UHGV virus genome: UHGV-0360087
Strand: one strand, 5' to 3'
DNA from: a virus
DNA length: 10,606 nucleotides
The notes under the pieces: generated by a model
Seen by the model: the letters and a program-made list of their open reading frames with translations, nothing else
Told to the model about the DNA's origin: nothing
The model's database searches: none
Position numbers and translations under genes: made by a program
Part shown: positions 2,675 to 2,749 of the stretch, in pieces
Layout: each line of letters opens with the position of its first letter
Numbering within the stretch: position 1 is the stretch's first letter

Positions 2675-2749
2675 TGGTGTCCCCTGCAGGAATCGAACCT
2701 GCAATTAGCCCTTAGGAGGGGCTCGTTATATCCATTTAACTAAGGGGGC
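2675..2749 (-). tRNA. argW: tRNA-Arg, anticodon CCU, 75 nt including encoded CCA
   Basis: The reverse complement folds as a cloverleaf: D arm with GG, anticodon loop CU-CCU-AA, T arm GCAGG-TTCGATT-CCTGC, and 3' ACACCA. The acceptor stem has one C2-A71 mismatch. Confidence 0.85.

Follow-up and report, generated by a model that had tools for sequence, protein, structure and literature searches.

Insertion of Stx2a-converting phages at argW is widely reported in the literature. These phages (VT2phi_272, HQ424691; the LC645xxx prophages) occupy the same site in the same orientation as the prophage described here, with the integrase beside the 5' end of the tRNA gene, and the GenBank record of VT2phi_272 places a 25-bp attL over tRNA bases 1–24. 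They also supply a phage leader with a promoter-like TTGATT-18-TATTAT. Unlike the phage in our window (the whole stretch of DNA that was analysed, 10,606 nucleotides long), however, they carry GTCCT at attP bases 1–5, which is the same as in E. coli and leaves no mismatch; moreover, they carry stx and differ from the window prophage in the early region.

The arg2 integrases of Klebsiella target the 5' end and the D-loop (clade I.d, for example island arg2A-VII); the D-loop was termed a novel sublocation, some Klebsiella strains have one island at each tDNA end, and mismatched rebuilt tRNAs are not discussed (bioRxiv 10.1101/2020.11.02.365908). Like the window prophage, these elements insert upstream of the tRNA-Arg gene, and Klebsiella phage 1 LV-2017 has a homologous leader and an integrase region with about 84% DNA identity to that of the window. 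The 5' end that comes with the Klebsiella-type copies is GUCCCC and leaves no mismatch against ...GGGGAC, whereas the window copy is mismatched. Our locus falls into the 5'-end/D-loop sublocation in that its identity block covers tRNA bases 6–23 and its integrase is homologous to known members, as judged by sequence identity.

Three classical tRNA sublocations of integrases were reportedly distinguished by Williams in 2002. Classical 3'-end integration (P4, IntS of CPS-53/KplE1, and CUS-3 at argW) likewise employs a tyrosine integrase and a tRNA fragment in attP, and restores the gene as a recombinant; the IntS-type element in the same window is an instance of it. The window prophage differs from this type in replacing the 5' end together with the transcription signals and in displacing a 5' rather than a 3' fragment, and its crossover lies in the D-arm, outside the three classical sublocations. 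In the tRNA-dependent lysogeny of mycobacteriophages, the core is ~10 bp, no tRNA is reconstructed and a phage tRNA of the same isotype is required (PMC10865867). The two cases are alike in that integration in a tRNA gene may compromise the host tRNA, but here a full-length cloverleaf is rebuilt with one mismatch, and no extra tRNA is present in the window, beyond which most of the prophage lies. A literature search (argW, D-loop, integrase, acceptor-stem mismatch) found no paper on a mismatched junction tRNA at argW. The 5'-end/D-loop architecture is known, if uncommon; the mismatch allele is a new example of it.

The tRNA gene and its two integrases

The window is a piece of the E. coli chromosome at the argW locus, in which two tyrosine integrases flank the tRNA gene. 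Its features are as follows.

1356..2549, minus strand: IntS-type (CPS-53/KplE1-like) integrase of the second element, at the conventional argW 3' end; Pfam integrase domains, with the equivalent gene annotated intS in the same place in EC31 and K-12
2675..2749, minus strand: tRNA-Arg(CCU) gene (argW), read as a chimeric prophage/host junction; ARAGORN, Rfam and reading of the sequence
2675..2689, no strand: last 15 tRNA bases, common to the att site of the IntS/CPS-53-type element; in the K-12 RefSeq record 'cryptic prophage CPS-53' starts at argW base 61
2680, minus strand: A71, the partner of C2 and the native E. coli base; the same in K-12 and in lysogens without a 3'-side element
2727..2744, no strand: 18-bp identity block (tRNA bases 6–23), common to attP and attB and containing the crossover; in L004 and L005 it recurs as a direct repeat at either end of the prophage
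2745..2749, minus strand: tRNA bases 1–5 (GCCCC), the stretch of the rebuilt 5' acceptor strand that is specific to the phage; GTCCT in K-12, a host version that 720632 and EC31 retain at the far end of the prophage
2750..2923, minus strand: leader supplied by the phage in place of the host argW promoter region; no relation to the leader in K-12
2945..4114, plus strand: tyrosine integrase of the 5'-side prophage, with an alternative GTG start at 2924; Pfam Arm-DNA-bind_3 and Phage_integrase
4098..4340, minus strand: small helix-turn-helix ORF, convergent with the integrase and overlapping its 3' end; weak Pfam HTH_17 match (E 5e-4, below the curated cut-off)
4295..10606, minus strand: lambdoid early region with DUF4222, TraR-like zinc finger, Dam methylase, Gp157, RecT, Gam, CI-like S24 repressor, Cro/YdaS and YdaT; Pfam, with gene order as in L129–L135

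ARAGORN called a single tRNA-Arg(CCT) with anticodon cct at 2675–2749 on the minus strand, which is the sole tRNA in the window. Against the Rfam tRNA model (RF00005) the gene scored 60.5 bits, compared with a gathering score of 29, and one non-canonical pair was marked, model pair 2:70, which corresponds to tRNA pair 2:71. The minus strand of the region reads GCCCCCTTAGTTAAATGGATATAACGAGCCCCTCCTAAGGGCTAATTGCAGGTTCGATTCCTGCAGGGGACACCA, and C2 and A71 were assigned from the reading GCCCCCUUAGUUAAAUGGAUAUAACGAGCCCCUCCUAAGGGCUAAUUGCAGGUUCGAUUCCUGCAGGGGACACCA. With acceptor strands GCCCCCU (5') and AGGGGAC (3'), the 7-bp stem is incompletely paired: G1-C72 is followed by C2*A71, then by C3-G70 to C6-G67 and by U7-A66. 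C2, C5 and A71 are window bases 2748, 2745 and 2680, respectively. In K-12 MG1655, argW has the 5' end GUCCUCU (GTCCTC... in DNA) and is otherwise identical to the window tRNA; at positions 2 and 5, U in E. coli is replaced by C in the phage copy. The original prediction had placed a C-A mismatch at pair 2:71 and had given, correctly, an E. coli argW beginning GUCCUCU from which this copy differs at positions 2 and 5 only; the mismatch was borne out by the pair marked in the Rfam model and by the strand read.

The integrase on the 5' side has 389 aa and lies 195 bp from the 5' end of the tRNA gene. It belongs to a group targeting the D-arm of argW and shares 87% amino acid identity with the integrase of the Stx2 phage VT2phi_272, which adjoins the annotated attL in argW. 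Its match to IntS is confined to a 71-residue N-terminal stretch with 35% identity. The ORF at 4098–4340 is a probable excisionase or recombination directionality factor, judging by its sequence and place; in this position related genomes annotate a 61-aa helix-turn-helix regulator. It shares a 17-bp overlap with the 3' end of the integrase gene (window 4098–4114), and the same 17-bp overlap is found in the RefSeq annotation of the JNEC-KY177 and 2013C-4465 prophages. The lambdoid prophage continues past the window end (10606), and its window part contains no toxin genes.

On the other side, the 3' flank of the tRNA is identical to that of K-12. The 3' end of the gene was probably supplied by an element too, with the same sequence as the host, so that the gene would have been rebuilt at both ends. 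At window positions 45–665 (plus strand) and 816–1163 the 3'-side element differs from K-12-type CPS-53 (gtrABS), and a DUF4376 ORF adjoins intS where EC31 has a tail fibre assembly gene. This element appears to be a different IntS-bearing prophage remnant.

Origin of the two acceptor strands

EC31 and 720632 have complete genomes, and in both of them the prophage with the 5'-side integrase sits between argW and yfdC, the upstream neighbour of argW in K-12. At the far prophage end, on the yfdC side, the native argW leader runs into GTCCTCTTAGTTAAATGGATATA(A) and then into phage DNA. This GTCCTCTTAGTTAAATGGATATA represents host tRNA bases 1–23/24, displaced together with the host promoter. At the integrase end, the full-length tRNA gene comes after a phage-type leader. 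K-12, which has no 5'-side prophage, provides the empty site, with yfdC, the host leader and GTCCTC... uninterrupted. The far prophage end lies outside the window, and the direct repeat was read in the related genomes L004 and L005 only (L005 being 720632, in which the prophage is truncated by IS1). The 720632 junction is identical to that of the window over 186 nt, and there the tRNA is followed by dsdC with no 3'-side element; A71 must therefore be native to E. coli, and C2 must come from the phage.

Phage and host copies have 21 of the first 23 tRNA bases in common, and the bases of the block at 2727–2744 are also covered by the 25-bp attL annotated in VT2phi_272. The D-stem halves GTTA and TAAC stand symmetrically around the block and the D-loop, as stems do around the anticodon-loop and T-loop sites of other integrases, and by this analogy strand exchange would take place within the D-loop. 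Bases 1–5 lie outside the identity block and hence are never exchanged by site-specific recombination, so the phage allele is inherited through the phage only.

We therefore hold with high confidence that the gene is the junction left by a lambdoid phage integrating into the 5' part of E. coli argW. It has an adjacent tyrosine integrase and a non-host leader, related genomes have a direct repeat at the far end, and K-12 has the empty site. Comparison of genome sequences establishes how the junction is built, where each of its parts comes from and that the allele recurs. The original prediction that a mobile element had supplied the mismatching end of a chimeric gene gains support; more exactly, it is the 5' end that is foreign, and it comes from the 5'-side prophage. 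E. coli argW has GUCCUC with A71, and not the same 5' strand with a compensating G71.

The course of events may be pictured as follows. The attP would consist of a phage leader, probably with its own promoter, and a copy of tRNA bases 1–23, in the form of phage leader, GCCCCCTTAGTTAAATGGATATA and TTTTAAAAACAATTC.... The phage tyrosine integrase would recombine it with the chromosomal gene inside the 18-bp block (bases 6–23, comprising D-stem and D-loop). The host promoter and host bases 1–23/24 are left at the far prophage end by yfdC, tens of kilobases away, and the gene beside the integrase is composed of the phage leader, phage bases 1–5 (GCCCC), the common core and the 3' two-thirds of the host gene. 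In this product C5 turns U5*G68 into C5-G68, but C2 stands opposite host A71 and is unable to pair. The last 15 bases would probably have been re-supplied with the same sequence by the IntS-type 3'-side element, giving a three-part mosaic.

The mismatch could also have arisen in the classical direction, with the IntS/CPS-53-type element supplying an A71 end that did not match a native GCCCCC 5' strand. The IntS integrase does lie directly downstream of the tRNA, the K-12 annotation sets the CPS-53 boundary at tRNA base 61, and a mirror-image case seems to exist in the metagenomic contig L136. This contig is about 80–84% identical to the E. coli yfdC-argW-integrase region, including the synteny of yfdC; it has a native-type leader, with TATACT at the K-12 distance from the gene, its tRNA begins GCCCCC, and its 3' flank is of the IntS type, with A71. 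A native leader joined to GCCCCC implies that C2 is a natural chromosomal allele in some other enterobacterium; L136 looks like the mirror-image chimera, in which the 3' end was supplied, and a host of the L136 type is a plausible source of the C2 of the phage copy. For the window, however, E. coli natively has GUCCUC as its 5' strand, which turns up in the displaced fragment at the yfdC end of the 5'-side prophage, and the lysogens without any 3'-side element (720632, L129 and L131–L133) all have A71 and the same mismatch. This refutes a 3'-side origin here, and we regard it as very improbable.

Recurrence and distribution of the GCCCCC allele

In the assembly collection, 124 blocks contain an integrase identical over its 389 aa. 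Seven loci with it were read (L129–L135), and every one has the same phage leader and GCCCCC...AGGGGAC; so has 720632, where the integrase is truncated by IS1. The 3' contexts of the mismatched tRNA differ, being dsdC, a P4-like integrase with AlpA, or IntS as in the window. A compensating A71G was found in none of the loci read with this integrase. Among 5426 complete E. coli genomes, a related integrase adjoins argW in 85, and the exact window junction occurs in one. The GCCCCC allele is uncommon, and its link to this phage is strict.

Rarity, with that one identical junction among the 5426 complete genomes, is the one thing that would speak for an error of sequencing or assembly at base 2748, or for a point mutation private to this strain. 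However, the identical 75-nt sequence and leader are present in eight other independent assemblies with differing flanks, and GCCCCC is also joined to distinct phage leaders in metagenomes and IMG/VR (L137, L138 and L140). Since the same mismatch stands in these eight assemblies with different 3' contexts, it is neither a sequencing error, which the original prediction had named as a finding that would refute it, nor a host allele; the chance of an error or private mutation is very small.

Two of these loci show further changes. In 720632 (L005, 1619–2316), the integrase is cut short by an IS1 element, and deletion or replacement has removed most of the prophage; the chimeric tRNA is for this reason probably fixed there, with no reversion by excision. 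In L135, the tRNA ending at 5805 (minus strand), beside a P4-like 3'-side element, has CTGATTG in the variable loop instead of CTAATTG. The segment supplied by the P4-like element may extend as far as the variable loop, in which case this part of the gene would be a mosaic as well; the alternative is a point mutation.

The 5' ends supplied by the window phage and its relatives are of three kinds.

GUCCUC: Stx2a-converting argW phages (VT2phi_272, JNEC-KY177 and 2013C-4465); identical to E. coli
GUCCCC: Klebsiella-type phages and E. coli relatives (Klebsiella phage 1 LV-2017, vB_EcoS-716R3, EC31, 118UI and an O157:H16 strain); full pairing with the host 3' strand
GCCCCC: the phage of the window, and phage-type leaders in L137 and L138 (metagenome contigs) and L140 (IMG/VR); mismatch against host A71

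The mismatch is thus found in more than one pairing of phage and host. The leader and flank of L140 are identical to those of L138. The GCCCCC allele had no record in the phage collection, and a free attP or phage-leader junction with GCCCCC was not found in IMG/VR. The IMG/VR scans returned a G71 3' end once (L139, with GUCCCC) and GCCCCC once (L140, with A71). In L139 (4078–4160), a tRNA-Arg(CCU) with a phage-type leader has the 5' end GUCCCC and the 3' end AGGGGGC-ACTTGT, followed by an IntS-type flank, so that U2 and G71 form a wobble pair. There G71 apparently comes from the 3'-side element, which brings no encoded CCA.

We infer that the copy in the phage was derived from a host in which C2 paired with G71; no compensated enterobacterial gene is among the sequences found. 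A scan of genome contigs with GCCCCCTTAGTTAAATGGATATA gave Clostridia tRNA-Arg(CCU) genes, with none from Enterobacterales among the matches listed; in all the GCCCCC genes of Clostridia among these matches, C2 is paired with G71. In metagenomes, compensated C2-G71 was absent from all three matches of a 43-mer scan.

Several Clostridia contigs also contain the 5' half of a GCCCCC-type tRNA-Arg(CCU) that ends in the anticodon loop (...CCTCCTAAG): L055 (3608–3806), L022, L052, L064, L095, L079, L050 and L062. A complete tRNA-Arg(CCU) gene follows about 85–100 nt after the half, which is a different 77-nt gene in L022, L052, L055, L064 and L095, and a full GCCCCC-type copy in L050, L062 and L079. 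A group I intron was considered as the cause of these halves and rejected, there being no Rfam intron matches. They look like cases in which the host gene is broken by an element that carries an entire tRNA as its substitute, much as in tRNA-dependent lysogeny.

Predicted consequences for the tRNA and the host

The leader contains promoter-like hexamers, TTGATG (2813–2818) and GATAAC (2791–2796), which are separated by a 16-nt spacer and end 41 nt upstream of the tRNA. Both hexamers and their spacing are kept across seven diverged phage leaders and are among the best-conserved columns, and the pair in the Stx-type phage leader stands at the same distance from the tRNA. On account of this conservation and of the analogy with the Stx-phage leader, the TTGATG/GATAAC pair is probably a replacement promoter for the tRNA. 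A generic sigma-70 scan called no minus-strand promoter upstream of the tRNA, the leader hexamers included. The hexamers could instead be arm sites of the integrase or IHF sites.

Minimum free energies (MFE) were predicted for four versions of the tRNA, and Rfam scores were obtained for the three natural ones.

Window tRNA (GCCCCC, A71): -24.2 kcal/mol, pairs 1:72 and 2:71 open; 60.5 bits
K-12 tRNA (GUCCUC, A71): -26.0 kcal/mol; 63.4 bits
EC31 tRNA (GUCCCC, A71): -29.0 kcal/mol; 65.6 bits
Hypothetical G71 version of the window tRNA: -31.1 kcal/mol

The predicted MFE fold of the window tRNA is still a cloverleaf. In this model, the gain of C5-G68 nearly offsets the loss of pair 2:71, and folding would be only mildly weakened. 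The identity elements of E. coli ArgRS are A20 and C35, with minor contributions from 36 and 73, and these are in the unchanged part of the window tRNA. Because these are intact and the predicted stability is near native, function is likely to be retained, and we would expect the tRNA to be chargeable, with some fraying at the end of its stem.

The chimeric gene is apparently the sole tRNA-Arg(CCU) gene in 720632, since the complete chromosome has no second match to the argW query; the second copy whose presence the original prediction had left to be checked did not appear there. Moreover, argW encodes a minor isoacceptor, and the mnm5U34 tRNA-Arg(UCU) of argU is able to read AGG. It is thus conceivable that the rebuilt tRNA is dead or crippled and that AGG is read by the argU tRNA or by a phage-borne tRNA, as in tRNA-dependent lysogeny. 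The opening of pairs 1:72 and 2:71 in the MFE fold, the loss of the native promoter, the lack of a second argW-query match in 720632 and the existence of another AGG-reading tRNA would all agree with such a state. However, the cloverleaf is complete and only 1.8 kcal/mol weaker than that of K-12 (-24.2 versus -26.0), the Rfam score is close to the K-12 value (60.5 versus 63.4 bits), A20 and C35 lie in unchanged sequence, the phage leader has a conserved promoter-like hexamer pair, and the window part of the prophage contains no second tRNA. We consider a crippled tRNA rather unlikely and keep to the reading of a probably working gene with a slightly weakened stem.

A further idea, which we offer as a speculation and think quite unlikely, is that lysogeny reversibly rewires the only tRNA-Arg(CCU) gene of the host by placing it under a phage-controlled promoter and giving it a weaker acceptor-stem top, with the level, processing or charging of the AGG-reading tRNA altered. 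C2 would then persist in several phage lineages as neutral or useful to the phage, and would not be simply inherited from a C2-G71 host. If this were true, the rewiring of argW would amount to lysogenic conversion at the level of rare-codon translation.

The locus is a clear natural case in which integration has rebuilt the 5' end of a tRNA gene, and probably, through two different elements, the 3' end as well, with an imperfect result. Boundaries of argW prophages can lie on the 5' side, and island finders that assume 3' fragments will mis-map them. Likewise, the tRNA gene sets of lysogens may hold phage-derived alleles, which are not to be read as host polymorphisms. A phage that integrates in this way has to provide the signals from which a host tRNA is transcribed. 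Although mechanisms like this one are known, if the mismatch or the new promoter changes the supply of tRNA-Arg(CCU), lysogeny would alter the decoding of AGG, probably to a small extent.
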